64,000 bases of DNA, taken from positions 3,410,001-3,474,000 of the forward strand of contig CM039004.1 of NCBI GenBank assembly GCA_017499595.2, given 5' to 3'. A model generated the notes under the pieces. It was not told the DNA's origin. It saw only the letters and a program-made list of their open reading frames with translations, and made no database searches. The translations under genes were made by a program, and so were the position numbers. Origin of the DNA: Psilocybe cubensis (taxonomy: Eukaryota). Within the stretch, counting starts at the first letter, position 1. Each line of letters begins with the position of its first letter. This document shows positions 3,040 to 64,000 of this stretch, one piece after another.

Positions 3040-4200
3040 TTTGTCCTTTCTGGAGTGATGCACAGCGCGTTGGGCGTTGTAGACCCCGGTGCATCTGCTG
3101 TTGGTGTACCACCCCCACCACACAAAGGAAGAACACCACAGTGTATATGTCTCCTCGCGATGTGCGGCTTCCATCTGGACCCGTTGAGGTACTTGAGCTC
3201 GAGCACGCTCGTGGGACCATATTTGCAGTATTTTGAGTCGATGGCTGCTAGGGAGCTGTTAGAATTCCAGGTGCGTTTGTGTTCTTTGGTGATATGCCTG
3301 GATGAACCTGACGATGATGATGAATAGGTAAATAGAACACGGAGAGCGCGGTGTTGAAGGCGTATGTGAGTGCGCTGACTAGGGTTTTGGATCATGGTGT
3401 ACGTCCTTTACTCCTTTTCTCGCACACACACTCTGTGTGTGTGTGTTTGTGTGCTGCTATTAACGTGCTTTGTGGGTGCATAGACGAAAGTGGTCTACAT
3501 CGCGTCGTTGAATGATCAAGTTGTACCGATTTATTCGGGGTTATTTACTGCTGCAAACCATCCGCTTATTTTACATACATTGTTTATCAATGGGGATGCG
3601 TATCAGTACGATTTTTTTAATAACCACTTTCTCAAAAAAGCTTTTTTTAACACCTCTCTCTCTCTCTCTATCTCTCTCTCTCTTGTACGCACACACAGCT
3701 CATCAGACTTCCTCTGCGCACTCCTCATCCTCCTCCTGCATATCCGCAACGCGGGATTACCGGATTCGGGGCTGCTTGCGCATCTCTCAGAAGTGACGGT
3801 GGGGAGTCTGAGCGGGATTGGACATTCGACGGTGTATGAGGAGGAGGCGTGTTATAGGCTCGCGGTGGATTATGTCTTTTTGGCGATTTACCGCCCTACA
3901 CATACACACACCCACCACTAACAGTCGATCCGTTCAACGCGGCACAGGAGCAGAACGATTATGAGATCCCGTGGGCGCTGAGGGATGTGATTGCGGACGA
4001 GCGGATCGGGTGATTGTTTAGAGAGGAGTTTGAGAGGCTTAAGAGGGCGTTTGGGGAGTGGGCGCCGAGGACGGGCGTGTTGAGGGAGGTGAAGAGGAAG
4101 TTACAGCCTGTTACGAGGTTGGGGAGTGGGAGTGGTGGTGTTGCATTTAGTTATATGTATTATAGAGCTCATTCATTTCGGCGCTTAACTACATCCAACT
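3040..4200 (+). pseudogene. 3' fragment of a conserved fungal YML020W-like (alpha/beta-hydrolase-like) gene
   Basis: Spliced peptides LAMCGFHLDPLRYLSSSTLVGPYLQYFESMAARELLEFQ, VVYIASLNDQVVPIYSGLF..HPLIL, GLLAHLSE..GSL.GIGHSTVYEE and NDYEIPWALRDVIADERI resemble this family as I recall it. There is an in-frame TGA at ~4011 and no 5' half. Confidence 0.55.
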
Positions 4201-4869
4201 CCACGATATTGATTTCCACAACGGATTAGCAGCTGCAGTACAACTTTAACACTCACTCACAGAGTGAATCAAGCAAACAACATCCCTCAGGGGCTCCTGA
4301 ACATTAGCATATTAGAGTAAGAGTGTCGATTAGACGATGAGGGCATGTACAAGACACCCGCATCTCTTCTACACTACACCAACCCCACATCTACACCGAA
4401 ATCTCCTATCCACACCCACCCAAATGCACCATCCAAAACGCCCCACCCCTCCAATCCCCGAGAACAGTGCAGAACCACATTCCACGTACGTAGCATGCTG
4501 CAACGAGTGTCGTTGTTTCTCATTTCACAAATCTTCTAGGGATTTGAAGAAAAAAAAAAAATAAAGCTCGCTAGCGGAGCCGAGTAGTTAGGTGCTAAGA
4601 GCGGAATGTGCCGTGTGGAATGGAGGCGATTGGGATGGGCTCGAATCGCGAATCGGGAGGTGGGGAGGATGTGCATAGGTGCATAGGTGCAATTGTTGGT
4701 GAGCTTGTTGAAAAATTTGACCCGTGTGGGTCGATATGACTGTAAAGAGGGATTAGCATGCACTCATTGGGTAACCCTGTCCTGTACTATGTCTTTGTAT
4801 TTCATGGTTTTCAATCCTATTCCTTGTTTCTTTGTCAGGCGCTTAACGTTGTCACCACAAAACACATAT

Positions 4870-5045
4870 TAGCGTTGGTTAGGGTTTATGGTTTAGGGTT
4901 GGTGGTGACCACAAAAATACAGATTAGGATGGTTTAGGGTTTAGGTTTTAGGGCTGGTTGGGATTTGATAATACCATAAAAGCACAGATTAGGCTGGTTA
5001 GGGTTGGTAAATACAATTATATATGTAGCAGATTAGGGTTGGTGT
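4870..5045 (+). repeat. Degenerate interstitial telomere-like tract
   Basis: TTAGGG/TTTAGGG/GGTTGG variants interleaved with CACCACAAAA and ACAGATTAGG motifs; homologous to 34765-34975. Confidence 0.75.
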
Positions 5046-23280: not shown

Positions 23281-23312
23281 AGGGTTTAGGGTTTAGGGTT
23301 TAGGGTTTAGGG
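23281..23312 (+). repeat. Interstitial telomeric repeats (TTTAGGG)4; attachment site of retroelement copy 1
   Basis: AGGG(TTTAGGG)4 read directly. Confidence 0.95.
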
Positions 23313-23378
23313 TGGGAGCGAGCACCGAGCGAAGCGAGGTGCGAGCGACTTGTTTAAACTGTGAGTTAAATGGAAAGA

Positions 23379-23443
23379 AGCCAGAGGGCTGTTTGGGGGT
23401 ACAAACGGCCAGCCCTTTCGTCTTTATAGACTCTTCAGTGGCT
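23379..23443 (-). ncRNA. Type I hammerhead ribozyme (copy 1)
   Basis: Minus strand: AGCCA CUGAAGA GUC-UAUAAA-GAC GAAA GGGCUG-loop-CAGCCC UC^UGGCU. The complete core and three stems are present; the predicted cut is between 23384 and 23383. Confidence 0.9.
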
Positions 23444-23978
23444 ATTCTTAGAAGGAATGTTCTGGAACATCCGATGACAGCGCGTGAAGTGATGCTGCGC
23501 AGCTGTCATGTATCTTACCGACTATCACAAATCTGTCAATGTTTATTGTCAAGTTAGACAGGTCTCTGATGAACAGAGTGTCACGGGTCAATGTGGCACA
23601 TGGTAACCTGTCAAAAGTGGATCCAACACTTTTGTTCTTTGACATCGTGGGTTATTGACTGTGATGTGAATCACATGGATATAGAGTACTCTGGTTACGT
23701 GGCTCCGAGTAACCGCGACATGGGAATATTCACATGTCTAGAGTATAAATAGCTTACCTAAGTCCTTACCTAACAATCAATTGATTGATTGTTGTGAATC
23801 TTAATTGGACAGTTCATGATCCGGTCCATCAAAAATGTTTCCACGGTACTAAGGAACTTTTCCCGAAGTACTAAGTAACTTTTCCCATGTACTAAATTAG
23901 ATCCGGCCCTTCACAATCACATGCCGTTCGGAAGTTCACACGCCTACCTTACTTCCTACTAAGGTTAGACTTAGTTAG

Positions 23979-24040
23979 CTTAGGGTTGGGGTTAGGTTAG
24001 GGCTTAGGGTTTAGGGTTTAGGGTTTAGGTTTAGGTTTAG
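23979..24040 (+). repeat. Telomere-like tract inside the retroelement 3' UTR
   Basis: TTAGGGTTGGGGTTAGGTTAGGGCTTAGGG(TTTAGGG)2TTTAGG; also at ~28397, ~29857 and ~62383. Confidence 0.9.
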
Positions 24041-24152
24041 CTATTTAATCCAATGTGTTGCTTGTAAGTAGATGTTTGTTACTTTATAGCAAGGAATACT
24101 TACGGTTAGGGTTTTTTTCTAATGCTTTACGCCTTACGCGCTAGTATTCTTT

Positions 24153-27100
24153 TCATCGGTTGTAAGATTTGGATATTCTGCCGAATTCTGGATGTTCCCT
24201 CTCTTGTGAGATTGAATGTCTATGAAGTATTATCTCGTTATCGCTTTCGATACTTATCTGTTCAGCAGCTTCAACTAGAGCAGAATGATAAGTTTCATTG
24301 ACGTTTTGAGTTTCGGGAACAACACCACCTTTTTCGGCAATGTCTTCATCCAGTTTACGAAAAACTGTTTTCTTCCACACATTTGCAAGGTCGAAAAGAT
24401 TAGTATTGCGTTTTCGCGATACTATCCAACGACTTCCGAGTAGTCCTATCTTCCTCAAATCCGGTACGAACTCAGTTTCTCCGTCCACGAGGATCTGTGT
24501 GAACAGCTCCGGGCGAACATCATCGAGGTCGTGAACGTAATTTGGGTCTGGTTTGATAAGGGGTTTGGACGGGTCTGCATTATACAGACCTTTCTCGGCA
24601 TGTTCATACCATGCCGACCAATACTCGGTAACAGTTTTTCCAAGTTCAGCAGCTGAAAACCAATTCCATACCTGGTCAAATCTGGTTTTAAGTACAAGAA
24701 TGGATTTGTCGTGCTCTGCGATTCGTAAAGCGAATCGCTTTTCCCAACGTTCTTGTATATTCTTCTTACACCAAGACATTACTAGGTTTTCGGGATAACC
24801 GCGCACCAAATAGAGAGCGTTAAGGTCTCTAATTGCTCCGATGTAGATTTCCTTAGTACTACACAACACGGCTAGCCTGGATAACTCTCCAATGTAAACG
24901 CCACGTTTGACGTCCAAAGGATGATGTGATACCCATGGAACTCGTTCTCGGTTGTTTCCTGTCTTGACAAATGGCTTCCAATGAAGTTTTCCAGACTCCT
25001 TGAAAATGAAAGCATCGAGAAATTGACATCCCGACGAGGAAACAGCCCATTCGATAACACAACCATCGAACTTTATTGTTTCTTTAATAAGATTAAGTGC
25101 AAGTGCTTCGGACTCGGCGTAAACAATTGCGAAACAATCGTCGATGTACCTTCCATAGAAGGCCACGTTTGGGTGGTCTAAGATTTTTGACATTATTTCA
25201 AAATGGGCTCCAAAGAGGTTAGCAAGGTCCGGGGAATCCGCGACGCCCATTGCAAGGCCATTTTTTTGTCTAAAATATCTAGACCCATGTTGTGTTATCA
25301 ATTGCGTATTGCCAATCTCGATAGCACGTTTAAAGATGCCCAATTTAACCAAGTTATTCTCTAACGAATTTGGATTAATATGGGCTAATGCAGTATTTTC
25401 TTCCGAAGCGTTGAGTAACCATTCCTCGTACATACTACAAACGATGTCAATGCACGAGTCCAACGGGATATTGGGATAGAAAGCAACTACATCTCCAGTG
25501 ACAAAATACCATTGTCTTTTGGAGTCTATACGCAATTGGCTTAATCTCGTAAAGAGATCCTTCGTTCCGTGAATGATTGAAGGAGTCGATTTAATAATCG
25601 GCTTAAGCTCTTTTGATACAAACTTGGCTGCAGGATTAAATACTACAGAGTGACACGGAATTATGGGCCTAAATCCAGTAGGTTTCTTGTGGATTTTAGG
25701 TATACCATGAAATTGAGGATACTTGAACGATGATCCGTCTTCCGGTACATTCGATAGAAAGAATCGAGACAGCCCAAGTTCATAAAGAAACAGATGTTCA
25801 TCTTCGACAGTACGTGCGAGAGTTTGCATCTGGATCATTTTGCTCTTCATAACTTCTTGCGCAACTTCAAATTCTAACTCTTCGTAGTTACGTTCATCTT
25901 CAAGAAGATTGAGCTCATTCCTTAATATCCAGTCGCGTTCAGACACCGCGAGGCCAAGATTCTTATCTGTCATCGTAATAACATAGTTGTTATCGATAAG
26001 AAACTTACGGATCTTGTCCCTTTTAGGAGAGAACGCGTGCTTTCGCATCTCCGTAAGGGCTTCTTCCTGGATACTTGCGATCGTGCGTTGCACGTACCGA
26101 CGTCCCATCGAAAGGCCAAGTTCCATATATTGCGGTAATACTGGAGGTTTCTCCTTTTTCTTAGAGCTTACTCCATAATCTGGATCAAAAGGTTTGTTCA
26201 TGCCTTCCTTAAACAAAAAATAGATACGCCATCTTATTCTTCGTTGAAAATCGTTCCATGCTTGCATGATCAGACTTTGAGAAGGCAGAGTAAAAAACAT
26301 ATAATTGAGTCCGAGCGACAAATCATTTGCTATATCTACAGGGACCACCACACCAGGACTACAAGGTACACTACTACGATACTGGCCAGCCAACAAGAAT
26401 GAGATCGGCGTATGTAAGTGTACAAAAGAAACTGCGTCTGTTTTAGTCATGGTGAGTATATCGTCAGGAATAGAGTTGGGGAAGGCGGGTCTTACCGACG
26501 TAAAAGGTACTACATTAGACCGCGCGTCTAGGCTCTTGCCTTTCCCTTTCCCTTTGGATTGTTCTTGACGGGAGCTCTCCCCTTCCCTTTCTTCTTGTTG
26601 TCGACCTTGTTGGAAGCCTTGGTTTGGGGCTTCCTCTGCGAAGGCGTCGACGACGACTTGGGTTTCGAAGGGCCAGCTTTCTTGGCCTGAGGTTGAGGAG
26701 CCTTGGACGAATTCTGGCCAGACAAAGTCTGGGTAATTAGAATAGTAATTAGTATCCAAAATTATGGGTGAAGGGTTACGAGAACTTGCCTTCTTGCCCA
26801 CAGATCCAAGGTTGAGCTTCTTGAGACGTGCATTCAAGCCCTTATCAATAAGGGATTGAATCGATGGACCTGGTTTGGTCGCATCGGCCATCTCGACATC
26901 GGCTGTTGCCGCAGTCGACCGCTTTTTCTCAATCTTGATTGCCAAAGCGCGGTGGCGCAAGTTGACAATCTGTTTGATATGAGAGAAGATGGCTGGCAAA
27001 ATGGTTTGCAATGCGCTGCATTCAGCCTTCTTCTGCGGTGACACTACCCAATCTGTTATTCGACGAACTCCCTTGTTGTCTGTAGAGAAAACGGGGAGCT

Positions 27101-27683
27101 TATAGCTGGATTTGCGATCATCGTAAGTTGTCTTAACGATGAGGGCAGCAGCTTCATAACAGTTATTGAGTGCGCATTTATCATCCCAAAAGGCCAGTTC
27201 GTCCTTTTTCGCCTGGATGGCGCCGTCATTAATCGCCTTTTGGAAGACGTCACGAGCGGTGGAGAACGTAGAGGAGACTCGAAGAGCCTCCGCTGACCCG
27301 GCATCCGCGAATTCCTTCGTGAGTTGGAACTCGGGAGCCTTCACCCGAAGGCGATTGGGGGTGTTGCCTGCGCTAACGGCAAGTTCAAGGCGCTCAAGGC
27401 TAGCCTTGACTGTTTCCCTCTTGTCGCACCACGATGCGAGGTTGAGGAGAAACTCCCTAAGGGCAGCACGATAGTCAAAAAAGACGCAGTCTACGATCTG
27501 GTCAATGGAGCGGCACTCAGCTATTTTTTTGATGACGACAGTGGCCAACTCGTCGATGAGGGCGTTGTGGCGGCCAGCTTCGTCGTTGACGCCAAAGACT
27601 GTATTGTTGACGACAGCCTGGGTGAGTGCGTCCAGGGTGGGGGACATGGCACGAGAGAAGGCAGCAGAGTAAGTGGAAGACAT
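24153..27683 (-). CDS. ORF1-reverse transcriptase fusion (Penelope-like RT, no endonuclease), 1176 aa
   Basis: RT motifs DKNLG, GIPKIHK..GFRPII, TGDVVAFYPNIP, QKNGLAMGVADSPDLANLF, YGRYIDD and FLD, plus PLE C-terminal SHHP..KRG...ELSRL...RGYP. The N-terminus is helical or coiled-coil. Confidence 0.93.
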   Translation of the reverse strand: MSSTYSAAFSRAMSPTLDALTQAVVNNTVFGVNDEAGRHNALIDELATVVIKKIAECRSIDQIVDCVFFDYRAALREFLLNLASWCDKRETVKASLERLELAVSAGNTPNRLRVKAPEFQLTKEFADAGSAEALRVSSTFSTARDVFQKAINDGAIQAKKDELAFWDDKCALNNCYEAAALIVKTTYDDRKSSYKLPVFSTDNKGVRRITDWVVSPQKKAECSALQTILPAIFSHIKQIVNLRHRALAIKIEKKRSTAATADVEMADATKPGPSIQSLIDKGLNARLKKLNLGSVGKKASSRNPSPIILDTNYYSNYPDFVWPEFVQGSSTSGQESWPFETQVVVDAFAEEAPNQGFQQGRQQEEREGESSRQEQSKGKGKGKSLDARSNVVPFTSVRPAFPNSIPDDILTMTKTDAVSFVHLHTPISFLLAGQYRSSVPCSPGVVVPVDIANDLSLGLNYMFFTLPSQSLIMQAWNDFQRRIRWRIYFLFKEGMNKPFDPDYGVSSKKKEKPPVLPQYMELGLSMGRRYVQRTIASIQEEALTEMRKHAFSPKRDKIRKFLIDNNYVITMTDKNLGLAVSERDWILRNELNLLEDERNYEELEFEVAQEVMKSKMIQMQTLARTVEDEHLFLYELGLSRFFLSNVPEDGSSFKYPQFHGIPKIHKKPTGFRPIIPCHSVVFNPAAKFVSKELKPIIKSTPSIIHGTKDLFTRLSQLRIDSKRQWYFVTGDVVAFYPNIPLDSCIDIVCSMYEEWLLNASEENTALAHINPNSLENNLVKLGIFKRAIEIGNTQLITQHGSRYFRQKNGLAMGVADSPDLANLFGAHFEIMSKILDHPNVAFYGRYIDDCFAIVYAESEALALNLIKETIKFDGCVIEWAVSSSGCQFLDAFIFKESGKLHWKPFVKTGNNRERVPWVSHHPLDVKRGVYIGELSRLAVLCSTKEIYIGAIRDLNALYLVRGYPENLVMSWCKKNIQERWEKRFALRIAEHDKSILVLKTRFDQVWNWFSAAELGKTVTEYWSAWYEHAEKGLYNADPSKPLIKPDPNYVHDLDDVRPELFTQILVDGETEFVPDLRKIGLLGSRWIVSRKRNTNLFDLANVWKKTVFRKLDEDIAEKGGVVPETQNVNETYHSALVEAAEQISIESDNEIILHRHSISQEREHPEFGRISKSYNR
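26528..27683 (-). CDS. Predicted spliced ORF1 protein (~364 aa) with Lys-rich tail
   Basis: Removing intron 26729-26789 (AAG|GCAAGT...CTAAT..CCAG) joins ..GSVGKK in frame to TLSGQNSSKAPQPQAKK...KGKGKARA*. Confidence 0.65.
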
Positions 27684-27715
27684 AGTAGCTGTTGGGTAAT
27701 AGCAAAGTCAAGTGG

Positions 27716-29147
27716 TTTAGGGTGGGAGCGAGCACCGAGCGAAGCGAGGTGCGAGCGACTTGTTTAAACTGTGAGTTAAATGGAAAGAAGCCAGAGGGCT
27801 GTTTGGGGGTACAAACGGCCAGCCCTTTCGTCTTTATAGACTCTTCAGTGGCTATTCTTAGAAGGAATGTTCTGGAACATCCGATGACAGCGCGTGAAGT
27901 GATGCTGCGCAGCTGTCATGTATCTTACCGACTATCACAAATCTGTCAATGTTTATTGTCAAGTTAGACAGGTCTCTGATGAACAGAGTGTCACGGGTCA
28001 ATGTGGCACATGGTAACCTGTCAAAAGTGGATCCAACACTTTTGTTCTTTGACATCGTGGGTTATTGACTGTGATGTGAATCACATGGATATAGAGTACT
28101 CTGGTTACGTGGCTCCGAGTAACCGCGACATGGGAATATTCACATGTCTAGAGTATAAATAGCTTACCTGGGTCCTTACCTAACAATCAAACAATAGAAT
28201 GATTGATTGTTGTGAATCTTAATTGGACAGTTCATGATCCGGTCCATCAAAAATGTTTCCACGGTACTAAGGAACTTTTCCCGAAGTACTAAGTAACTTT
28301 TCCCATGTACTAAATTAGATCCGGCCCTTCACAATCACATGCCGTTCGGAAGTTCACACGCCTACCTTACTTCCTACTAAGGTTAGACTTAGTTAGCTTA
28401 GGGTTGGGGTTAGGTTAGGGTTTAGGGTTTAGGGTTTAGGGTTTAGGGTTTAGGTTTAGCTATTTAATCCAATGTGTTGCTTGTAAGTAGATGTTTGTTA
28501 CTTTATAGCAATGAATACTTACGGTTAGGGTTTTTTTCTAATGCTTTACGCCTTACGCGCTAGTATTCTTTTCATCGGTTGTAAGATTTGGATATTCTGC
28601 CGAATTCTGGATGTTCCCTCTCTTGTGAGATTGAACGTCTATGAAGTATTATCTCGTTATCACTTTCGATACTTATCTGCTCAGCAGCTTCAACTAAAGC
28701 AGAATGATAAGTTTCATTAACGTTTTGAGTTTCGGGAACAACACCACCTTTTTCAGCGATGTCTTCATCCAGTTTACGAAAGACTGTTTTCTTCCACACA
28801 TTTGCAAGGTCGAAAAGATTAGTATTGCGCTTTCGCGATACTATCCAACGACTTCCGAGTAGTCCTATCTTCCTCAAATCCGGTACGAACTCAGTTTCTC
28901 CGTCCACGAGGATCTGTGTGAACAGCTCCGGGCGAACATCATCGAGGTCGTGAACGTAATTTGGGTCTGGTTTGATAAGGGGTTTGGACGGGTCTGCATT
29001 ATACAGACCTTTCTCGGCATGTTCATACCATGCCGACCAATACTCGGTAACAGTTTTTCCAAGTTCAGCAGCTGAAAACCAATTCCATACCTGGTCAAAT
29101 CTGGTTTTAAGTACAAGAATGGATTCGTCGTGCTCTGCGATTCGTAA
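27716..29147 (-). mobile_element. Coprina-type element copy 2, 5'-truncated; forms the upstream pLTR of copy 1
   Basis: Near-identical repeat of the 3' UTR and the RT C-terminus; ends at TTCGTAA and is capped by telomeric repeats. Confidence 0.9.
27789..27853 (-). ncRNA. Type I hammerhead ribozyme (copy 2)
   Basis: Same sequence as the copy 1 ribozyme. Confidence 0.9.
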
Positions 29148-29181
29148 GGGTTTTATAGGGTTTAGGGTTTAGGGTTTAGGG
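29147..29181 (+). repeat. Telomeric cap on truncated copy 2 and attachment site of copy 3
   Basis: AGGGTTTTATAGGG(TTTAGGG)3. Confidence 0.9.
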
Positions 29182-31020
29182 GGGGAGCGAGCACCGAGCG
29201 AAGCGAGGTGCGAGCGACTAGTTTAAACTGTGAGTTAAATGGAAAGTAGCCAGAGGGCTGTTGATTGATATCAGCAGCCAGCCCTTTCGTCTTTATAGAC
29301 TCTTCAGTGGCTATTCTTAGAAGGAATGTTCTGGAACATCCGATGACAGCGCGTGAAGTGATGCTGCGCAGCTGTCATGTATCTTACCGACTATCACAAA
29401 TCTGTCAATGTTTATTGTCAAGTTAGACAGGTCTCTGATGAACAGAGTGTCACGGGTCGATGTGGCACATGGTAACCTGTCAAAAGTGGATCCAACACTT
29501 TTGTTCTTTGACATCGTGGGTTATTAACTGTGATGTGAATCACATGGATATAGAGTACTCTGGTTACGTGGCTCCGAGTAACCGCGACATGGGAGTATTC
29601 TCATGTCAAGAGTATAAATAGCTTACCTGGGTCCTTACCTAACAATCAAACAATAGAATGATTGATTGTTGTGAATCTTAATTGGACAGTTCATGATCCG
29701 GTCCATCAAAAATGTTTCCACGGTACTAAGGAACTTTTCCCGAAGTACTAAGTAACTTTTCCCATGTACTAAATTAGATCCGGCCCTTCACAATCACATG
29801 CCGTTCGGAAGTTCACACGCCTACCTTACTTCCTACTAAGGTTAGACTTAGTTAGCTTAGGGTTGGGGTTAGGTTAGGGTTTAGGGTTTAGGGTTTAGGG
29901 TTTAGGTTTAGCTATTTAATCCAATGTGTTGCTTGTAAGTAGATGTTTGTTACTTTATAGCAATGAATACTTACGGTTAGGGTTTTTTTCTAATGCTTTA
30001 CGCCTTACGCGCTAGTATTCTTTTCATCGGTTGTAAGATTTGGATATTCTGCCGAATTCTGGATGTTCCCTCTCTTGTGAGATTGAACGTCTATGAAGTA
30101 TTATCTCGTTATCACTTTCGATACTTATCTGCTCAGCAGCTTCAACTAAAGCAGAATGATAAGTTTCATTAACGTTTTGAGTTTCGGGAACAACACCACC
30201 TTTTTCAGCGATGTCTTCATCCAGTTTACGAAAGACTGTTTTCTTCCACACATTTGCAAGGTCGAAAAGATTAGTATTGCGCTTTCGCGATACTATCCAA
30301 CGACTTCCGAGTAGTCCTATCTTCCTCAAATCCGGTACGAACTCAGTTTCTCCGTCCACGAGGATCTGTGTGAACAGCTCCGGGCGAACATCATCGAGGT
30401 CGTGAACGTAATTTGGATCTGGTTTGATAAGGGGTCTGGACGAGTCTGCACTATACAGACCTTTCTCGGCATGTTCATACCATGCCGACCAGTACTCGGT
30501 AACAGTTTTTCCAAGTTCAGCAGCTGAAAACCAATTCCATACCTGGTCAAATCTGGTTTTAAGTACAAGAATGGATTCGTCGTGCTCTGCAATTCGTAAA
30601 GCGAATCGCTTTTCCCAACGTTCTTGTATATTCTTCTTACACCAAGACATTACTAGGTTTTTGGGATAGCCGCGCACCAAATAGAGAGCGTTAAGGTCTC
30701 TAATTGCTCCTATGTAGATTTCCTTAGTACTACACAACACGGCTAGCCTGGATAACTCTCCAATGTAAACGCCACGTTTGACGTCCAAAGGATGATGTGA
30801 TACCCATGGAACTCGTTCTCGGTTGTTTCCTGTCTTGACAAATGGCTTCCAATGAAGTTTTCCAGACTCCTTGAAAATGAAAGCATCGAGAAATTGACAT
30901 CCCGACGAGGAAACAGCCCATTCGATAACACAACCATCGAACTTTATTGTTTCTTTAATAAGATTAAGTGCAAGTGCTTCGGACTCGGCGTAAACAATTG
31001 CGAAACAATCGTCGATGTAC
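29182..31020 (-). mobile_element. Coprina-type element copy 3, 5'-truncated at the YIDD motif
   Basis: 3' UTR plus RT C-terminus; homology ends at GTCGATGTAC(CT), where the X module begins. Confidence 0.9.
29247..29313 (-). ncRNA. Type I hammerhead ribozyme (copy 3, variant loop III)
   Basis: Core conserved, stem I UAGCCA/UGGCUA, different stem III loop. Confidence 0.88.
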
Positions 31021-31195
31021 CTAAGCTTATTCCCCCCCGAAGGGGGGGCCTTCGTTGCATTGGGTCTCCTGTGCAGAATTCCTGAAATCTGATGCCAGAT
31101 TCGGATTCCTCGACCTTAAAAACCCCCAAATCCACTTTTAAAATATTTTATTTTGTACATACAGAGGTGCTATGTAATTAAATGTGTATTTTACC

Positions 31196-31363
31196 GAGGC
31201 CGGCCTCCAAATTGATGGAGGTCACTGGAGGCCGGCCTCCGTCTAAAAATAATTTTTGACAGGCACTGGAGGCCGGCCTCCGTCTAAAAATAAATTTTGA
31301 CAGGCACTGGAGGCCGGCCTCCGTCTAAAAATAAACGCGTCGAGGCCACCTGAGGCCGGCCTC
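31196..31363. repeat. 41-bp-periodic array of the palindrome GGAGGCCGGCCTCC
   Basis: Palindromes at 31227, 31268 and 31309, with 12-bp versions at 31196 and 31352. The same array occurs at 45127-45254 and 58256-58423. Confidence 0.92.
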
Positions 31364-32779
31364 GATTCGTATGTGCGTCGTACGCGCGAGTGGAGGCGGA
31401 CTCCAGCGTGGGTCCCAACCAGATAGGTCACGTGAGTATACGCGCGTCGTTGTTTGTTCACTGCTCGTCGCCGCCTGTCGCTGCCCCCACCTTCGCTCGC
31501 TGCCCACAACGACACAGACATTGCTGCGTGTCGTTGCACCGCCACCCCTGCGCCTCTGCTGCCGCTGCCGCTGCCGCCGACTCCCCCACCCCGCCGCCGC
31601 CGCCTTAGCTCGCCGCCCACAACAACACGCAGCAGAGAAAGCGTTTGTGTTTGTTTGTGTTTGCTCACACTATCCCTACCTGCTGCGTATCGTTGCGCCA
31701 CCGCCGCCGACGTTTGAATTCTCTCGTCGATTCATTCTCAGTCCTTTTTCCTTCTTTCTTGACGAATGTCTTAAGTCTGACTGACAGATGTCACAGCAGC
31801 TCTGTCCTTATTTGCAGTCTCCCTTTCCTTAATCAATCTCTCACGTTTGCACAACTCGCGGTGCGTGATTTTTATTGCAACTCAATCCCCTGTTTCGACT
31901 TGAGATGTGCATCAGCCATCCGCGTCAAGGTGCAGTCACATATTCTCGACAGTCACTCACCTTTACATATACTAGGAATCAGCTCAATCCGAGTTGTCAC
32001 TGGGCAACAAATGTACACAACTCACAAAGCAGCAGCGGCGGCGAGGTTGAAGAGAGTGATACAGTGCTGCATCGGGTATGACAGGTGGCCTGCGGTTGAG
32101 AAAACGTGGTACGTTAGCACCGTTCTGCTCATTGACACCGTTTCTGCTTACCTTCACTCCCTCTCCTCCTTTATGTTTACAGTAGGCAACAGGCGGCCTG
32201 CGGTTGATAAACATGGTGCGTCAGCGCTGTTTCATTCATCAGGGGCGCCGCCTCTTACCTTCACGCCCTCCTCTATCTGTGCAGCCCGCAACGGCTGCGC
32301 TGCTGATGACACCCATGGTTCTGCTCACCTTGCTTCTCCACGAAGTCGTCACAATTCCGCTCTCAAACGCGGCGCATACTTTGCTGGGCTCCTCTTGTCC
32401 AACACTGGCCGGAGCTGTATTGTTCAGTGAGTCCTTCTCCTATTGTCATCCAATTCAGACATGATGGACTCACCACTGTATTCCAGCCCTCTCAGGGCGG
32501 CACAGACACGACACTGGAATGAAGAAAAGAGGTGAGTGTGCTGCTTGGAACTGTCCAACCCGCATACTCACCTTGCCGCTTCAGGTAGGCACAAAACAAC
32601 TCTCAAGCGCGGCACATGCTCTGTCAAGAGGTGAGTACTATTCCTTTTTGTATCCAACGCGGTTGCTCACCTAGCTGTCCGCAGCGTCGCTCGTCGCCGG
32701 CTGGTTCAAAAACTCGGGTGGTTGGTGTACAGCTCAGAAGCGGGCACACATGTCTGCATGGAAGGTGTTGGAGACATCG

Positions 32780-33300
32780 TGCAGGAGGGAGGGTCAGCGT
32801 TGGGCAGTACGGCACAACGGCAAACTCACGTTCTTTACATGAAGAGCGCATAGGATGGGCTGAAGAGATGTGAAGAGGGCATACCATGATGGCTCGCTGG
32901 CAGCCGAAATGCAATGGACGCTCTCTCTGACAGCTGGTCTACAGCAACTCGCCGTCGGGCTGGATGGAGGGTCAGCCTTGGGCAGGACAATTACAATGGC
33001 AAACTCACGTTCTTTGCGTGCGTTTGCATGAAGAGCGCGTCGGATGGGCTGATGGAATATGGAGCGGGCATACCACGATGACGAGATGATTCGCTGGCAG
33101 CCGAAATGCGACGGGTCGGTTTACAACAACTCGCTGTCGGGCTGGATGGAGGGTCAGTGTTGGGCTGGACGTCACTACAGCACACTCACGTTCTTTGCGT
33201 GCGTTTGCATGGTCGCTGTGTGCTGTGGAACGTATCAGGTGGGTTGGAAGGATGCGGTTACTATCACGGCGGGATGATTTGCTGGCAGCAAGAGTGCGTT
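32780..33300 (-). repeat. About three ~180-bp exon-intron repeats of a probable minus-strand gene or pseudogene in X
   Basis: Repeated CTCACGTTCTTT...GCTGGCAGCCGAAATGC...GGAGGGTCAG gives minus-strand GTGAG donors and CTGAC branch sites. A minus-strand TATAAAA lies at ~33440. Confidence 0.55.
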
Positions 33301-34764
33301 GGACGCGCCGTGTCGAGCTGCGGAGGTTGGTCGATGGGTGGTGGTTGTAGTGTCAAGACCACGAGGGCAGGAGGAGAGTAGAGGAGGAGAAAACCCAGGA
33401 GTGGGTTGATGTCAAACAGGTATTACCCACCTCGCTTTTATACCACCCGTCTCATGTAACCCGTTACGTGTTTTTTTCCGCAATGCCAAAAAAATAGAAC
33501 TATCTTCTATTCGACCGAAGGACAACGCAAATATACTGAACGAAATGATGCCGACATGTGCTAGTATTGATGGGTTTTACAACTTCCGTTGTGTAAACGA
33601 CATGTCGAGTTGAGGTCGCCGCTGTTCTCAGAACTGGAATCGAGATTGTGGAGTGGTTGGTATGTTGTGCTTTTGAATTTATCATTTTGCAAGTTTACTC
33701 AATGTTTACGTTCATTGTAAGACACATATTCTGTGAGTTTTAATGCATTTTGTAATACATTGTTTCCGAGTATCTTGCTCGATGGTATGCAAGGTATCAA
33801 TTCTTTTCTACAAAACCTATAATACTCGTACTATGCAATCCGCAGATATCGCATTTCTGTACGTATCCTCCAGGTTATATTCAAGCCAAGGATCCATCTT
33901 GACATGATTCTGACGTTCTGAGCTAGCGGGTGACATTACTCGCACTTGAATATGTTCTGGAATCGTTATGTTTCGGTGAACAACGAGGACCCGGAATGGG
34001 TTGTTTCAAACGGTGAGTTTTGTAAATCCATTTGCTCTTTGCAAATACCTGGGATTTGAAACCTTGGATGGTAAATTTTGGAAGGTGCAGAGCGTGTGGT
34101 AGATAGAATGCGGTGAGTATCGAGGCTTTATTTACAAACAATGTTGTTTCCGACACGTTCAAGGCCACCGGCGCTTAATATGTGTTGATTACAGATTTCA
34201 ATGTACTTCGATTCCTGAAAGATTTGAAGGACTCGACTTTTCAGGAATTATTCATGAGGTCATTATACCCCTAATCAAAGTAGAACGCGGAGTAATGATG
34301 AATTAGGGCACGAGGAGAGCGTTTGCGCCATGGTTGACATACCATGCTACACTGGGGATACGTTGTAATAGAGGTGAAATGTTACCGTAAATCACCTCTT
34401 CAATATTCACATGGAGGTCATGGCACGTCTACATAACCAAAACGTTAGATAATAAATGTGGTACGTCAGAGTACTCACCTTGACATTGCTGTAAAGATAT
34501 GGTTTCGGGAATACTCAAATCTAGCGACTCCTGAATCCCCAATGCACTAGTCCATTTCATTCAAAGCCAAAGAGTATGGACAGGCAAGACGAGATGTTTT
34601 GGTCCAGTGGGACACTGCAGGCCTGCATTTGAATAAAGTAAAAAGTTTCAAACACTTTTGAGTGAGTCTGTGAGATTAATGGCAACAAGAATTCAAAGAA
34701 CCTACTGGTATAAATATATCCAACACTACTCGCAAAGTTGAAACCCCGCTGGTGTTGTCGTGAA

Positions 34765-34975
34765 TACACCACAAAACACATATTAGCCTTGGTTGGGGTT
34801 AGGGATTAGGGTTGGTGGTGACCACAAAAATACAGATTAGGATGGTTTAGGGTTTAGTTTTTAGGGTTGGTTGGGATTCGATATACCACAAAAGCACAGA
34901 TTAGTCCGGTTAGGGTTGGTTAGCATTGGTTAGGGTTGGTAATTACAATTACATATTTAGCTGGTTAGGATTGGA
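34765..34975 (+). repeat. Degenerate interstitial telomere-like tract
   Basis: Paralogue of 4855-5045. Confidence 0.75.
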
Positions 34976-44952: not shown

Positions 44953-45720
44953 CTAAGCTTATTCCCCCCCGAAGGGGGGGCCTTCGTTGCATTGGGCCTC
45001 CTGTTCAGAAATCCTGAAATCTGATGCCAGATTCGGATTCCTTGACCCCGAAAACCCCCAAATCAACTTTTAAAATATTTTATTTTGTACATACGGAGGT
45101 GCTACATAATTAAACATGTAATTTATGGAGGCCGGCCTCCAAATTGATGGAGGCCACTGGAGGCCGGCCTCCGTCTAAAAATAACTTTTGACAGGCACTG
45201 GAGGCCGGCCTCCGTCTAAAAATAAACAGTGACAGGCACTGGAGGCCGGCCTCCCGCCTGTCTCACCACCCCCGACGCATGCGCTCGCTGTCCCAATGCC
45301 TGCGCTCGCTGTCCCAACACTCGCGCTCGCTATCCCGACACTCGCACTCGCCGCTGCGTGTCTTTGCACTGCCACCTCCGGGCCGCTGCTGCTGCCACCA
45401 CCTCCACTCGCCGCCTGTTGCTGCCGCCTCCGCCTCCATTTGCAGCCTCTCTCTGCCGCCGCGCCGCCTTCCCACCGGCAACGTACGGCGAGTTGTTTGT
45501 CCATGCTGTTGTCATTTCATTCAAACTCCGCCTTTACAATTGACTCCTGACGCGCACCGCAGCGACAATATTATAACCCGCCTTCGCTCGTTGCCCACAA
45601 CGACACACACATTGTTGCGTGTTGTTGCGCCACCACCCCCGCGACTCCTCCACCGCCGCCGCCTTCGCTCGCCGCCCACAACAACATGCAGCCGAGAAAG
45701 CGTTCGTGTTTGTTTGTGCT
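44953..45720. mobile_element. X module copy B terminus (diverged variant)
   Basis: Same terminus, C7-GAA-G7 hairpin and palindromes at 45127, 45159, 45200 and 45241; patchy homology to 31480-31660 continues to ~45720. Confidence 0.75.
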
Positions 45721-50527: not shown

Positions 50528-51280
50528 TGATGAGCCGTGGTCGGTTGCGCGCGCGGAAACGTTTCGAACACAAGTCCATTCTCCCACGATATGCCGTGTC
50601 ACATGTTCAATCTCCGACATTTCGCAAAGCACCCGCTCTGGCAATATCGCCCACACAAGCTTATCGTCGTGCACATAGAATGTTCAAGAAACAGTATGCC
50701 CCACCTATTCTCCCTTTTTATTGGCCTAGACTCGCGTACTGCACTGTTGAGTCAGCTATCGGCATCTTGGCACCGTTTCCCACGACTTTGATCGGACACT
50801 GACACCTCTTGACCTCCTCATCCTCCTGAGAAAACCAAGCGCCAAACACTCATTTCCTTTTCGTTCCACTTGAAACTTTGATATACCATTTCGTTCCATA
50901 TGCTACGCCTTCTAGAATTTTTATACATTTTTCTTGGCTGTTTCAGAGTTGCTATGGCTAGATTACTATAAATTCAGGTGTAGTAGCTAGCTAGAAAAAA
51001 AAACAACCCATTGGTTCGCTCCCCTCTTCTCGTTTACCATCTGATATTCATAACCTCTCGTATATATCGTTTCGCGCTCGAATTTCGTGTCGTTATCTCG
51101 CCCCAGAGTGGTTCGAAGTCCTTGAGTGGCTTACACTCTGTTACTAGTCAAATTGTGGTTAGAGGTCTTTGTGGAAGCGCATCTCGCCATTACGCACCTT
51201 CTACGAAGTGTTGGGTGTTTCCCAGTGGTCTCAACTTCTTTTGGTTCTGCTCCGCACCTCACACGCTCGTAGGCGTATCA
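50528..51280 (+). repeat. 5' LTR (~753 bp, TG...CA)
   Basis: Matches 57883-58083 over its first ~200 bp. Ends ..GTATCA followed by TTTTGGAGCCCACCGCGAGGG at the PBS position. The 3' boundary is inferred. Confidence 0.8.
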
Positions 51281-51494
51281 TTTTGGAGCCCACCGCGAGG
51301 GTGCTTCAATAACCATTGCAGCTTCAACCACAGCCCGTATTACTCGCTCACAAACGCTACGAGACGAGCTCATCTCGGCGTTCCAAAACCCCGACGATCT
51401 TACCGACGACTCTTTCTTTGTTGAGGTACCCGACGTCGACGCTACACACAACAATCTCCCTATCCTCACTTCCCCTCTCTTCACTTCTTCTCAA

Positions 51495-53879
51495 TTGCCC
51501 TCGCCACTTCATTCTCCATCGTCTTCGGTATTGTCCATTACTGCTTATTTTTCTGCACTCAATATCAACCCCAACATCTCCGTAACATCACCATCACCTC
51601 CAACCACCATGACCACTCGAATGCCTGCTCGTGGCGATCGCAGTGCGCCCACCTTCGACCACACTAAGCCTAGAGAGCTCAAGCGATACTTCTCCGAGCT
51701 GGAGTTCCTATTCTCAGCTGCAGCAGTCACCTTGGATGCGGAGAAAAAGCAACACACCACTCGTTATGTCAGTATTGAGGTCGCAGACATATGGGAAACC
51801 TTGCCAGAGTTCTCAGACCCCACCAAGACTTATGTGGACTTCAAGAAAGCCATTCAAGAGCTCTACCCAGCTGCGGATGAAGAATATAGGTACACTATGG
51901 CGGACATGGATTTGTTAATTGGAAATCGTCAGCGCTTAGGCATTCACTCACTCGGAGACCTAGCCGACTACCATTCGCAATTTCTGGCAATCACCAAATT
52001 CCTTATTTCGCGTCAACGCCTCTCAGAGATTGAGCAAAAGCGTGCTTACATTCGTGGTTTTCCTCCAGAGCTTTGGGCGAAGGTATCTCAACGTCTACAG
52101 CTCAAATTCCTTGACCATCTCCCCGACGAACCCTATGATATCTCAGACGTGCAAGCTGCAGCTCGTTTTGTGCTTCATGGCACACATTCTATCGCTTCTT
52201 CGCTTCCAGCAACCTCTGCAGGCTCGTCTCCAGCAATAGTCCCATTGGAAGGCATCGTCAAGACGGAGCAGCTTGGGTCTATCTTTACAGAGTTCACCAA
52301 GTCGATTCTTGAGGCTATCAATGCAACTTCACAACGCTCACGCTTCCCTGCGTCTTCTGATGCGACTCCTCGCGATGTGAAGTGTAATTTCTGTGGTCGG
52401 GATCACTATATTCGCAATTGCGAGTTAGTGGACGAATATATTCGTGCTGGCAAGGCTAAGCGCAATATTGAGGGAAAGGTAGTCTTACCTACAGGTGCTT
52501 TCGTTCCACGCGAGATTACTGGGTCTCTGTTGAAAGAGCGCATTGATGAATGGCACAGACGCAATCCTGGACAGCTAGCGGCAGCCACAGTCTCGTCCAA
52601 CATGCTTGGCGCAGTTCAGTGCAGTCCCAATGCTTCCAGTGCGTTGTCTCCACATCAAGCGGCTTATCAGTTCACAGCTGATGACCGCATCGCGCTGCTT
52701 GAAGCAGAACTCTTTAGTCTTCGTGCACGGCGCCCTGACTTCTCTCCTACTGTTCGCACCCGTGCCCAGAAGATACGCGACATGGAGCAGGCCGCAAACG
52801 ATGAAGCGCTGCGTGCGGATGCAGCTGGTACTCGTCCTAACCCGCCAGCATCAACACCGGATCCCCAAGAGTCTCAGAACGTTTCCAAGTCCACAAATCA
52901 AGCTGTTCCACCTCCTCCTCCATCTCAGCCTGAAAAAGAGCCAGATCACCCGTTTTGCAACGCCCGAGATGCAAATTATTTGCCACCGCTTCATCGCAAC
53001 CTTGCTGCGCAACCAAAAACCGTTCCAAAGAAGGCAGAGCCCGCGTACCGCACCGCTGCACCAATACAAGATGCAGAAGTCGTTTCTACCGTCTATAACC
53101 GCTCCCTTGATGCTCCAGTTACGCTCACGCAGCGGGAATTGCTCTCAATTGCCCCAGACATTCGTGCACATTACAAAGATGCGACTACTGCCAAGCGCAC
53201 ACCTACCACCGACTCTACACTCCAAACAAACATATTAGAGGGTCAACACATGCAACAGCGTACTCAAAAGGCTTACCAGTCCATGCCAGTCGCCGTTGCT
53301 CTCGCAGCAAGCCAACATCGCAGTCCTCCTGAAGGTGCAACCATTGTAGACGATCCTTTTGAGCAGTACTATCGCTCGCTGCGTCCAGGAGAAGAGCCCG
53401 ATCCGACTCGACTTGCTGTTGCTAAGGAATCTGCGGCGCTTCGTTCTATTTTTCCCATCGTAGACAACAACCTTAAGGTTGAATGCATCTTGGATCCCGG
53501 GAGCCAAATCATTGCAATGTCCGAGGAAGTCTGCCACGCGCTGTCTCTTATTTATGACCCCACAATCACGCTCAATATGCAGTCTGCAAATGGAACAGTT
53601 GATAAGTCATTAGGTCTCGCACGCAATGTCCCTTTCCGCATTGGGGATCTCACCTTGTATATGCAAGTTCACGTTATTCGTGCGCCTGCGTACGATATCT
53701 TGCTTGGCAGACCGTTTGACATCTTGACTGAGAGTGTTGTGCGCAATTTCCGCAATGAAGACCAGACAATTACTGTAGCAGACCCCAACTCGGGTCAGGT
53801 AGTCACTATACCCACTGTACCAAGAGGATCACCACGCTTTGCCTGTCGCCACTCGGATTTTCACGGAACGAGGATCTAG
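51495..53879 (+). CDS. gag: Gag-protease (likely start ATG 51609, MTTRMP)
   Basis: Zinc knuckle CNFCGRDHYIRNC; aspartic protease ILDPGSQI...DILLGRPF. Confidence 0.9.
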   Translation: MPSPLHSPSSSVLSITAYFSALNINPNISVTSPSPPTTMTTRMPARGDRSAPTFDHTKPRELKRYFSELEFLFSAAAVTLDAEKKQHTTRYVSIEVADIWETLPEFSDPTKTYVDFKKAIQELYPAADEEYRYTMADMDLLIGNRQRLGIHSLGDLADYHSQFLAITKFLISRQRLSEIEQKRAYIRGFPPELWAKVSQRLQLKFLDHLPDEPYDISDVQAAARFVLHGTHSIASSLPATSAGSSPAIVPLEGIVKTEQLGSIFTEFTKSILEAINATSQRSRFPASSDATPRDVKCNFCGRDHYIRNCELVDEYIRAGKAKRNIEGKVVLPTGAFVPREITGSLLKERIDEWHRRNPGQLAAATVSSNMLGAVQCSPNASSALSPHQAAYQFTADDRIALLEAELFSLRARRPDFSPTVRTRAQKIRDMEQAANDEALRADAAGTRPNPPASTPDPQESQNVSKSTNQAVPPPPPSQPEKEPDHPFCNARDANYLPPLHRNLAAQPKTVPKKAEPAYRTAAPIQDAEVVSTVYNRSLDAPVTLTQRELLSIAPDIRAHYKDATTAKRTPTTDSTLQTNILEGQHMQQRTQKAYQSMPVAVALAASQHRSPPEGATIVDDPFEQYYRSLRPGEEPDPTRLAVAKESAALRSIFPIVDNNLKVECILDPGSQIIAMSEEVCHALSLIYDPTITLNMQSANGTVDKSLGLARNVPFRIGDLTLYMQVHVIRAPAYDILLGRPFDILTESVVRNFRNEDQTITVADPNSGQVVTIPTVPRGSPRFACRHSDFHGTRI

Positions 53880-61663: not shown

Positions 61664-61712
61664 TTTGGTTTTTAGGGTTTAGGGTTTAGGGTTTAGGGTT
61701 TAGGGTTTAGGG
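61664..61712 (+). repeat. Telomeric repeats added at the break in X copy C
   Basis: TTTGGTT followed by (TTTAGGG)6. Confidence 0.93.
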
Positions 61713-61782
61713 TGGGAGCGAGCACCGAGCGAAGCGAGGTGCGAGCGACTAGTTTAAACTGTGAGTTTGAAATAGAAAGAAG

Positions 61783-61845
61783 GCCAGAGGGCTGTGGACT
61801 GTTGTCCACAACCAGCCCTTTCGTCTTTATAGACTCTTCAGTGGC
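61783..61845 (-). ncRNA. Type I hammerhead ribozyme (copy 4, variant loop III)
   Basis: Core conserved; the loop contains a TGTGGAC/GTCCACA hairpin. Confidence 0.85.
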
Positions 61846-62557
61846 TATTCTTAGAAGGAATGTTCTGGAACATCCGATGACAGCGCGTGAAGTGATGCTG
61901 CGCAGCTGTCATGTATCTTACCGACTATCACAAATCTGTCAATGTTTATTGTCAAGTTAGACAGATCTCTGATGAACAGAGTGTCACGGGTCGATGTGGC
62001 ACATGGTAACCTGTCAAAAGTGGATCCAACACTTTTGTTCTTTGACATCGTGGGTTATTGACTGTGATGTGAATCACATGGATATAAAATACTCTGGTTA
62101 CGTGGCTCCGAGTAACCGTGACATGGGAATATTCTCATGTCAAGAGTATAAATAGCTTACCTGGGTCCTTACCTAACAATCAATTGATTGATTGTTGTGA
62201 ATCTTAATTGGACAGTTCATGATCCGGTCCATCAAAAATGTTTCCACGGTACTAAGGAACTTTTCCCGAGGTACTAAGTAACTTTTCCCATGTACTAAAT
62301 TAGATCCGGCCCTTCACAATCACATGCCTTTCGGAAGTTCACACGCCTACCTTACTTCCTACTAAGGTTAGACTTAGTTAGCTTAGGGTTGGGGTTAGGT
62401 TAGGGCTTAGGGTTTAGGGTTTAGGGTTTAGGTTTAGGTTTAGCTATTTAATCCAATGTGTTGCTTGTAAGTAGATGTTTGTTACTTTATAGCAAGGAAT
62501 ACTTACGGTTAGGGTTTTTTTTCCTAATGCTTTACGCCTTACGCGCTAATATTCTTT

Positions 62558-64000
62558 TCATCGGTTGTAAGATTTGGATATTCTGCCGAATTCTGGATGT
62601 TCCCTCTCTTGTGAGATTGAACGTCTATGAAGTATTATCTCGTTATCGCTTTCGATACTTATCTGTTCAGCAGCTTCAACTAAAGCAGAGTGATAAGTTT
62701 CATTAACGTTTTGAGTTTCGGGAACAACACCACCTTTTTCAGCGATGTCTTCATCCAGTTTACGAAAGACTGTTTTCTTCCACACATTTGCAAGGTCGAA
62801 AAGATTAGTATTGCGTTTTTGCGATACTATCCAACGACTTCCGAGTAGTCCTATCTTCCTCAAATCCGGTACGAACTCAGTTTCTCCGTCCACGAGGATC
62901 TTTGTGAACAGCTCCGGGCGAACATCATCGAGGTCGTGAACGTAATTTGGATCTGGTTTGATAAGGGGTCTGGACGAGTCTGCACTATACAGACCTTTCT
63001 CGGCATGTTCATACCATGCCGACCAGTACTCGGTAACAGTTTTTCCAAGTTCAGCAGCTGAAAACCAATTCCATACCTGATCAAACCTGGTTTTAAGTAC
63101 AAGAATGGATTCGTCGTGCTCTGCGACTCGTAAAGCGAATCGCTTTTCCCAACGTTCTTGTATATTCTTCTTACACCAAGACATGACTAGGTTTTCGTGA
63201 TAACCGCGCATCAAATAGAGAGCGTTAAGGTCTCTAATTGCTCCAATGTAGATTTCCTTGGTACTACATAGCACGGCTAACCTGGATAACTCTCCAATGT
63301 AGACGCCACGTTTGACGTCCAAAGGATGATGTGATACCCATGGAACTCGTTCTCGGTTGTTTCCTGTCTTGACAAATGGCTTCCAATGAAGTTTTCCAGA
63401 CTCCTTGAATATGAAAGCATCGAGAAATTGACATCCCGACGAGGAAACAGCCCATTCGATAACACAACCATCGAACTTTATTGTTTCTTTAATAAGATTA
63501 AGTGCAAGTGCTTCGGACTCGGCGTAAACAATTGCGAAACAATCGTCGATGTACCTTCCATAGAAGGCCACATTTGGGTGGTCTAAGATTTTTGACTTTA
63601 TTTCAAAATGGGCTCCAAAGAGGTTAGCAAGGTCCGGGGAATCCGCGACGCCCATTGCGAGGCCATTTTTTTGTCTAAAATATCTAGACCCATGTTGTGT
63701 TATCAATTGCGTATTGCCAATCTCGATAGCACGTTTAAAGATGCCTAATTTAACCAAGTTATTCTCTAACGAATTTGGTTTAATATGGGCTAATGCAGTG
63801 TTTTCTTCCGAAGTGTTGAGTAACCATTCCTCGTACATACTACAAACGATTTCGATGCACAGGTCCAACGGGATATTGGGATAGAAAGCAACTACATCTC
63901 CAGTGACAAAATACCATTGTCTTTTGGAGTCTATACGCAATTGGCTTAATCTCGTAAAGAGATCCTTCGTTCCGTGTATGATTGAAGGAGTCGATTTAAT
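62558..64000 (-). CDS. Penelope-like RT, C-terminal part (partial)
   Basis: Nearly identical to the C-terminal part of the 1176-aa ORF, including YGRYIDD. Confidence 0.9.
   Translation of the reverse strand: MKSTPSIIHGTKDLFTRLSQLRIDSKRQWYFVTGDVVAFYPNIPLDLCIEIVCSMYEEWLLNTSEENTALAHIKPNSLENNLVKLGIFKRAIEIGNTQLITQHGSRYFRQKNGLAMGVADSPDLANLFGAHFEIKSKILDHPNVAFYGRYIDDCFAIVYAESEALALNLIKETIKFDGCVIEWAVSSSGCQFLDAFIFKESGKLHWKPFVKTGNNRERVPWVSHHPLDVKRGVYIGELSRLAVLCSTKEIYIGAIRDLNALYLMRGYHENLVMSWCKKNIQERWEKRFALRVAEHDESILVLKTRFDQVWNWFSAAELGKTVTEYWSAWYEHAEKGLYSADSSRPLIKPDPNYVHDLDDVRPELFTKILVDGETEFVPDLRKIGLLGSRWIVSQKRNTNLFDLANVWKKTVFRKLDEDIAEKGGVVPETQNVNETYHSALVEAAEQISIESDNEIILHRRSISQEREHPEFGRISKSYNR

Follow-up and report, generated by a model that had tools for sequence, protein, structure and literature searches.

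Our analysis concerns a 64,000-nucleotide stretch of Psilocybe cubensis DNA (GenBank assembly GCA_017499595.2, contig CM039004.1, positions 3,410,001 to 3,474,000 of the forward strand; this whole stretch is "the window" below) and the Penelope-like retroelement (PLE) that it carries. It indicates that the element is inherited as the 4410-nt RNA between two hammerhead ribozyme cuts, that its reverse transcriptase (RT) starts at a telomere-complementary patch and copies about 1.17 units, and that the first and second passes over the unit differ in their introns. On balance, and with no great confidence, we think it probable that a single closed RNA, processed between the two passes, extends chromosome ends in this way. 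The parts of the element are laid out in copy 1 of the window as follows.

27789..27853, minus strand: upstream type I hammerhead ribozyme, predicted cut at 27794/27793.
Between 27795 and 27794, minus strand: position in the upstream hammerhead at which other copies carry a 929-nt group I intron.
27684..27793, minus strand: leader of the unit RNA, 110 nt, from the cut to the ATG at 27683.
27714..27723, minus strand: telomere-complementary priming patch, 10 nt, unit positions 71-80.
24153..27683, minus strand: single open reading frame (ORF) of 1176 amino acids with N-terminal region, DKN motif, RT core and thumb, and no conserved GIY-YIG.
24275..24328, minus strand: cryptic GT-AG intron, 54 nt, in frame, spliced out of two second passes found elsewhere, at the left end of C9 and at the right end of C2.
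24041..24103, minus strand: spliceosomal-type GT-AG intron, 63 nt, which splits the internal telomere-like tract; first passes keep it and many second passes drop it.
23980..24040, minus strand: internal telomere-like tract, the end point of most second passes.
23384..23979, minus strand: 3' repeat, the body of the pseudo-long-terminal-repeat (pseudo-LTR), 596 nt.
23379..23443, minus strand: downstream hammerhead, predicted cut at 23384/23383.
23304..23383, minus strand: leader copy of 80 nt that stops at the patch, the first complementary DNA (cDNA) made.
23281..23303, plus strand: (TTTAGGG)n tract, the primer of copy 1.

About 920 kb, comprising the window and further fetched stretches that are mostly contig ends, were parsed against the 4410-nt unit into 177 pieces, of which five belonging to a diverged family were removed before counting. 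This set covers 225 of the 377 hammerhead junctions. Seven composite insertions were excluded from the comparison of mutation rates, and the mirrored outer part of C4 was left unused: the right end of this contig (G000:C4:4126600-4150895) mirrors the preceding array and is probably an assembly artefact or a fold-back. The diverged family is a second PLE family, found at the left end of C10 near 24-27 kb and in L113, whose leader has a comparable patch that adjoins telomere repeats.

Both ribozymes read on the minus strand as stem I, CUGAAGA, a 4-bp stem II, GAAA, a long stem III and UC, which is the type I arrangement of a CUGANGA core, GAAA, UH and three helices; their Rfam scores lie below the cut-off. 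The two are identical, and re-reading their coordinates from the minus strand returns the cuts at 27794/27793 and 23384/23383, spaced 4410 nt, that the original prediction had given. The constrained hammerhead fold (-21.0 kcal/mol) lies 0.6 above the minimum free energy of -21.6 kcal/mol, and unconstrained folding gives no significant signal (z -1.77). An Rfam search of the whole 64-kb window returned no hammerhead match, and one of a 2-kb locus returned sub-threshold hammerhead matches only. In 223 of the 225 junctions no change is seen in the 5' strand of stem I, in the core, in stem II or at the beginning of stem III, the two exceptions being one stem II change and one unparsed junction; a C-to-U change that preserves stem III pairing occurs in 7 of the 223, and the stem III loop has seven variants. 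Across the genome there are 377 occurrences of the ribozyme core and 0 of its reversed control, and all hammerhead places among the 100 listed lie within 90 kb of contig ends.

As assigned from its ORF, layout and chromosome-end position, the element is an endonuclease-less PLE of the Coprina type, and arrays of it stand at many P. cubensis chromosome ends. It has a single ORF (1176 amino acids) in a partial-tandem pseudo-LTR layout with type I hammerheads, lies at chromosome ends in the orientation for G-strand priming, and joins the telomere at the patch. The N-terminal PLE motif TDKNLG and the RT motifs are invariant in 60 homologues; the RVT_1 match (E 2.6e-6) is just under the Pfam cut-off. 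For the GIY-YIG endonuclease neither a Pfam match nor a conserved motif in the C-terminal columns was found, a look-alike in the thumb is not conserved in P0096, and PDB sequence searches gave no telomerase (TERT) match. The best match of the ORF is a protein labelled Psilocybe cubensis (97% identical).

Priming at the patch is recorded directly in the junctions. The predicted leader of about 110 nt with its telomere-complementary patch is there as described (110 nt; 27714-27723), and a telomere match of at least 10 nt arose in 31 of 20000 leader shuffles. Copies 1, 3 and 4 had been said to meet (TTTAGGG)n at the same point, and they do so at the homologous base (23304, 29173 and 61704, corresponding to 27714). 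Throughout the family, every one of the 158 pieces with an end in the leader stops between unit positions 77 and 83, which bears out the proposed priming site. The cut itself is usually crossed: among 156 scorable pieces 152 continue across it, so most templates were apparently continuous there, and 4 stop 0-6 nt from it (counted by eye; enrichment P 7e-5), so that cut RNA would sometimes have served as template and given a short product. The four pieces with these cDNA ends, from which we infer hammerhead cleavage in vivo, are 75-80 nt long, in line with the expectation that a linear cleaved monomer yields only a short copy. A set of nine 'leader-only' pieces all starting at the cut was rejected, as four do, three cross it and two lie at contig starts; two further leader-only matches belong to the diverged family and were dropped, and an apparent two-unit insertion proved to be two insertions joined at the patch. 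The commonest long form consists of repeat, unit and leader, about 1.17 units (55 pieces). A telomere-derived A is present in 14/149 downstream patches against 2/76 (P 0.10, not significant), and the four mixed patch pairs all have C upstream and A downstream, with none reversed, which fits primer annealing without being significant.

The end repeats are regenerated within each insertion. Upstream and downstream repeats of the same insertion are identical in 50/61 cases and differ by at most one change in 56/61, whereas shuffled pairs gave a mean of 8.2 identical and a maximum of 18 in 2000 shuffles; identity holds for 23/25 pairs with a group I intron and for 27/36 without. The leaders of one insertion match in 66/68. 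Gene conversion would make neighbours match and is rejected, since neighbouring repeats less than 200 nt apart are not homogenised (identical in 11/40). Five private substitutions are common to both repeats (rate 1.5e-4) and three are unshared (4.6e-5), and the two rates sum to the private rate of the single-copy body (1.8e-4). The C3 insertion, written cut to cut, is a single-crossover recombinant of two parents with 0 mismatches at 199 sites, which places its other switch of parent between 4399 and +1, no more than 12 nt from the cut. In a second clean recombinant, the C5 insertion, the parent changes at most 23 nt from the cut. Were crossovers uniform over the 737-nt repeat, both changes would fall so near the cut with a probability of 5e-4. 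Identical repeats with shared private mutations, together with recombination at the cut, thus indicate that what is inherited is the monomer from cut to cut, of which about 1.17 lengths are copied; the segment between the two cuts is also what had been proposed as the unit RNA.

The two passes differ plainly in their introns. The 63-nt intron is kept in 122/122 first passes through the tract. Of 61 longer pieces with their 5' end at the tract, 30 end inside it and are unscorable; the 31 scorable second passes comprise 17 with a spliced joint (6 of these with exon bases), 13 that are ambiguous and one that is unspliced. The hexamer of the spliced joint precedes random truncations at a background of 11/71, to be compared with 17/31 (P 9e-5). 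One whole second-pass unit lacks exactly the 63-nt intron and is, from position 34 on, otherwise identical to its own unspliced first pass; the body haplotype of this insertion is found nowhere else and is 6 changes from any other. Two second passes also lost the 54-nt intron, and a recurrent 5' end at unit 3518 was rejected as a start site because it is the 3' end of the second spliced intron. By hand count, the retained intron was entered by 123/134 first passes and 6/65 second passes (P 5e-32).

The group I intron follows the same division. It measures 929 nt (RF00028, 73 bits against a cut-off of 50, E 4e-18) and lies between U16.1 and C17 of the upstream hammerhead (L034:3773-4701 and 47 further places), being present in 32/76 upstream joints and in 0/149 first joints. 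Its catalytic core scores above the Rfam cut-off, a U precedes the 5' site, the last base is G, and the predicted P1 helix has -22.6 kcal/mol. The junctions are exact in 33/33 copies, and the 9 variable sites of the intron are common to several host haplotypes and partly linked to them. Two ectopic insertions follow CCCU (C2, C6), both in second-pass regions; a head-to-tail double intron lies upstream in an insertion with identical repeats, and tandem double copies occur in C9 (L120) and, judged by spacing, in C18. In the 64-kb window the intron is absent, the nearest copy starting 5.7 kb beyond it. As the first pass keeps its intron and the second is spliced and invaded by the group I intron, one unchanging RNA circle fails as an explanation.

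Copies 2 to 4 of the window, which lies 48.5 kb from the end of contig C7, are these.

27794..29147, minus strand: copy 2, a second-pass segment (unit 3066-4410) with the intron retained, equal to copy 1 up to 28169 and of another haplotype beyond.
29173..31022, minus strand: copy 3, a separate 5'-truncated insertion primed on the tract 29148-29172.
61704..64000, minus strand: copy 4, which lies innermost in the terminal array of contig C7; its primer was the tract 61671-61703.

Copies 1 and 2 show no difference over the 455 nt nearest their junction (27714-28169 against 23304-23759), and all 17 differences lie beyond that stretch (Poisson P 3e-4). The alleles of copy 2 at the 10 sites checked in the body also occur in other copies, and the copy 1/copy 2 haplotype is 79 changes from its nearest relative. 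We read the pair as an atypical older composite, written from one template for 455 nt before a switch; as such it is neither evidence against a single run nor an example of one. The original prediction was right that the two copies differ, but the identical 455 nt and the composite nature of the pair remove the objection to a single rolling-circle run that it drew from this. Likewise, its explanation of the head-to-tail arrangement by a circle or a read-through template finds no typical example in this pair.

Relatives were examined in 23 metagenome loci of 30-75% identity with the hammerhead descriptor, and on their sequences the layout of the element is conserved. A hammerhead was found in 13/23 loci, 8 of the 13 have a CCCTAAC patch, and in 7 the patch ends 48-82 nt after the cut. 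The tract-splitting intron is present in three of these loci and in a fourth, L139. In this locus (72% amino acid identity) the hammerhead cut is also followed, a few bases on, by another, distinct intron of group I-like type (1685-2700, approximate; E 1.9e-5, below the cut-off), which suggests an independent invasion of the same ribozyme region.

In the reading that we favour, read-through transcripts would be cut by the two hammerheads to give the 4410-nt monomer, whose ends would then be rejoined, either as a covalent circle or by a jump of the RT between the ends of the same RNA, two forms that genomic data cannot separate. The G-rich 3' end of the telomere would anneal to the patch; the RT, to judge by the junctions, then copies 80 nt, crosses the joint, copies the unspliced unit and crosses the joint again on the same haplotype, leaving an identical end repeat much as LTRs are rebuilt. 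The template would have undergone processing by the second pass: in many cases the 63-nt intron has been lost, so that the telomere-like tract is fused, and frequently the hammerhead has had the group I intron spliced into it. These asymmetries stand in the DNA; their cause, we suggest, would be an RT that, telomerase-like, leaves the RNA intact and free, so that the same molecule is processed between passes. Synthesis would stop in the tract, where telomerase or the next element takes over. PLE RTs are not known to have RNase H, and telomerase releases its product. A fuller version of this reading is tentative, and we would sooner doubt it than rely on it: a telomerase-like RT would copy the ribozyme-closed circle without destroying or holding it, the 63-nt intron would act as a round counter that hides a telomere seed when retained and exposes it when spliced, so ending the second pass once the repeat has been rebuilt and can be capped, and the group I intron would splice into the hammerhead only after priming.

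Several points weigh against the single processed RNA. Five of the 61 repeat pairs, the window's copy included, differ by 3-18 changes, and the unspliced intron was traversed in no fewer than three second passes whose haplotype matches. No second pass ends at the cut (0/76) as against 4 first passes (P 0.3, not significant). There are only two clean recombinants, the other classes are complex mosaics, and a four-gamete scan does not single out the cut site, as conflicts occur all along the unit; the recombinant evidence for the cut-to-cut unit thus depends on these two. A number of insertions probably arose by duplication at the DNA level, which makes the counts less than fully independent. 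That the RNA is cleaved and spliced, that the monomer is closed, and why the two passes differ, we infer from DNA, and splicing of an uncapped circle together with a 42% intron invasion within one transit of the RT is demanding. Finally, hammerhead mutants had no effect on insertion by Poseidon in vitro, where uncut RNA was the main template (PMC11167929), a result that counts also against the first of the alternatives below.

This first alternative, to which we give a real though minor chance, invokes two templates in cis: a closed monomer is copied first, and the upstream repeat is then added when a capped and spliced transcript, made either from the 3' repeat of the new copy itself or from the same parent locus, pairs with the unfinished end. 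Only transcripts with an uncut hammerhead would be usable, which would enrich for those blocked by the group I intron. Splicing, loss of the second cryptic intron, intron enrichment and the ectopic and double introns are all accounted for without splicing of a circle, and a three-pass insertion switches in the leader to its neighbour's haplotype and 5' junction, which argues that local transcripts can serve as template. On the other hand, the end would have to stay unhealed until the new copy has been transcribed, and ends in the upstream leader are almost absent. Moreover, the intron variants are partly linked to haplotype (9/13 against 2/19, P 0.0016), which parental carry-over fits better; this linkage is not explained by distance from the end (P 0.45).

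It is unlikely that more-than-unit RNA comes from a unit-length DNA circle popped out of the array, its older 5' part being spliced and invaded while the RT primes internally at the last patch. Such a circle would yield identical repeats and a gradient of processing together, and 10/23 metagenome contigs self-close with terminal overlaps of 77-493 nt, as assemblies of tandem arrays also do. Pop-out crossovers should, however, fall anywhere in the 737 nt, whereas both clean recombinants switch at the cut; both hammerheads would have to stay uncut, and the spliced joint occurs in 0/12 solo-repeat pieces.

An inherited read-through, in which a transcript of the chromosomal partial tandem stays uncut and is copied in a single run over its full length (the scheme of PMC11167929), would be the simplest source of an intron that is found only upstream, of its partial linkage to haplotype and of the stop at the tract, and it may operate in some events. 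As the main route it appears already contradicted and is given little credence here: it cannot match repeats and leaders in many haplotypes, it cannot separate leader and repeat at the cut, and it predicts no shared private mutations, two of which are in intron-bearing insertions. Little can be said either for a static rolling circle, an unchanged covalent RNA circle copied until the RT falls off (PMC4209133), which we consider very unlikely. It provides identical repeats and a cut-to-cut unit, and in one insertion the second pass does go over about 2 kb of the unit again in unspliced form; but the two passes should then share introns and the chance of passing the tract, and they differ. The earlier view that the template must be circular or read-through therefore holds in so far as the template was joined across the cut (152/156), but neither alternative survives in simple form. 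DNA-level recombination between ends, or artefacts of assembly or polishing, could account for the few blocks that recur with identical junctions and for the mirrored right end of C4, but would leave precise intron loss, exact group I junctions (33/33) and varied 5' truncations with telomere-repeat caps and differing neighbours unexpected, and can be all but set aside.

Further repeats were noted in the window. A 3.6-kb segment is present in duplicate at 99.8% identity (31020-34603 and 58080-61663; partial copy at 44953-45254) and contains 41-bp tandem repeats and an end hairpin. One of its ends adjoins four 5'-truncated PLE copies (copy 3 of the window, and others in C2, C1 and C4), and one copy extends into the telomere tract of copy 4; the segment is probably a further mobile element of the subtelomere. 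Ty3/Gypsy-type gag-protease and RT-RNase H-integrase ORFs occupy 51273-57316, with a 201-bp repeat around them (50528-50728 and 57883-58083). Degenerate telomere-like repeats with a 55-bp period form two patches that are 92% identical (4853-5008 and 34767-34920). At 23838-23895, at 23480-23520 and elsewhere in the 3' repeat, the pseudo-LTR contains a 22-bp tandem repeat along with a number of short inverted repeats.

With its hundreds of recent, polymorphic insertions the genome offers a natural marker experiment, whose outcome points to the ribozyme-cut monomer as the unit of inheritance and gives the tract-splitting intron a function. The system resides in a culturable fungus, and the models are open to ordinary RNA methods. 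PLE RTs are the closest relatives of telomerase; a released and reused template, if true, would link both mechanisms. Pseudo-LTR formation, the role of the hammerhead and the survival of introns through transposition are named as open questions (PMC8557442, PMC7761336).

The element class, its architecture and the circle hypothesis are already known, the circle being in print (PMC4209133), and priming with hammerhead and patch has been described for Athena, Terminon and Coprina (PMC6431247, PMC8557442); these and the following comparisons refer to the partial text available for each source. The EN-deficient (endonuclease-deficient) Coprina elements likewise have one RT ORF with DKN and no GIY-YIG, arrays at chromosome ends, 5' truncations with telomere-repeat caps and a reverse-complement telomere patch beside the hammerhead (PMC8557442, PMC13159263). 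The arrays described here are, in contrast, large and polymorphic enough to read the template, and they add inheritance from cut to cut, an intron that splits the tract and a ribozyme interrupted by a group I intron. Athena/Terminon of rotifers share a short telomere-complementary attachment just downstream of the hammerhead fold and head-to-tail chains, but have a minimal ribozyme and several ORFs, and their cleavage is termed auxiliary (PMC6431247), whereas here the inherited unit is bounded by a monomer-type ribozyme with a long helix III. Fungal hammerheads are active as monomers, those of Serpula at 0.16-1.97 per min (PMC4209133). The circular-template model of Cervera and de la Pena (2014) also has a self-cleaved monomer, ligated ends and more-than-unit reverse transcription, but its circle is unchanging and, in the text available, proposed without in vivo evidence (PMC4209133); our data support its unit, but the state of the RNA or the template must change between passes. 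In Poseidon PAc and Drosophila virilis Penelope reverse transcription similarly begins at an internal point of the RNA, a short way downstream of the ribozyme, and proceeds back over it, an intron lies at the start of the pseudo-LTR, and introns survive transposition; they differ in being endonuclease-primed, with no telomere patch in the accounts available and with uncut RNA as the in vitro template (PMC11167929, PMC2377424). With nuclear group I introns (RF00028) our intron shares the conserved core, the U before the 5' site, the terminal G and the predicted P1, but it sits in the hammerhead of a retroelement rather than in ribosomal DNA and appears to have spread through RNA. In the open-licence literature, taken without supplements, we found neither a group I intron in a PLE hammerhead nor a spliced second pass, and the supplements of PMC4209133 and PMC8557442 may show similar fungal ribozymes. 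What this study adds to the known systems are counts across many ends, the evidence of private mutations and recombinants for the cut-to-cut unit, and the spliced second pass.

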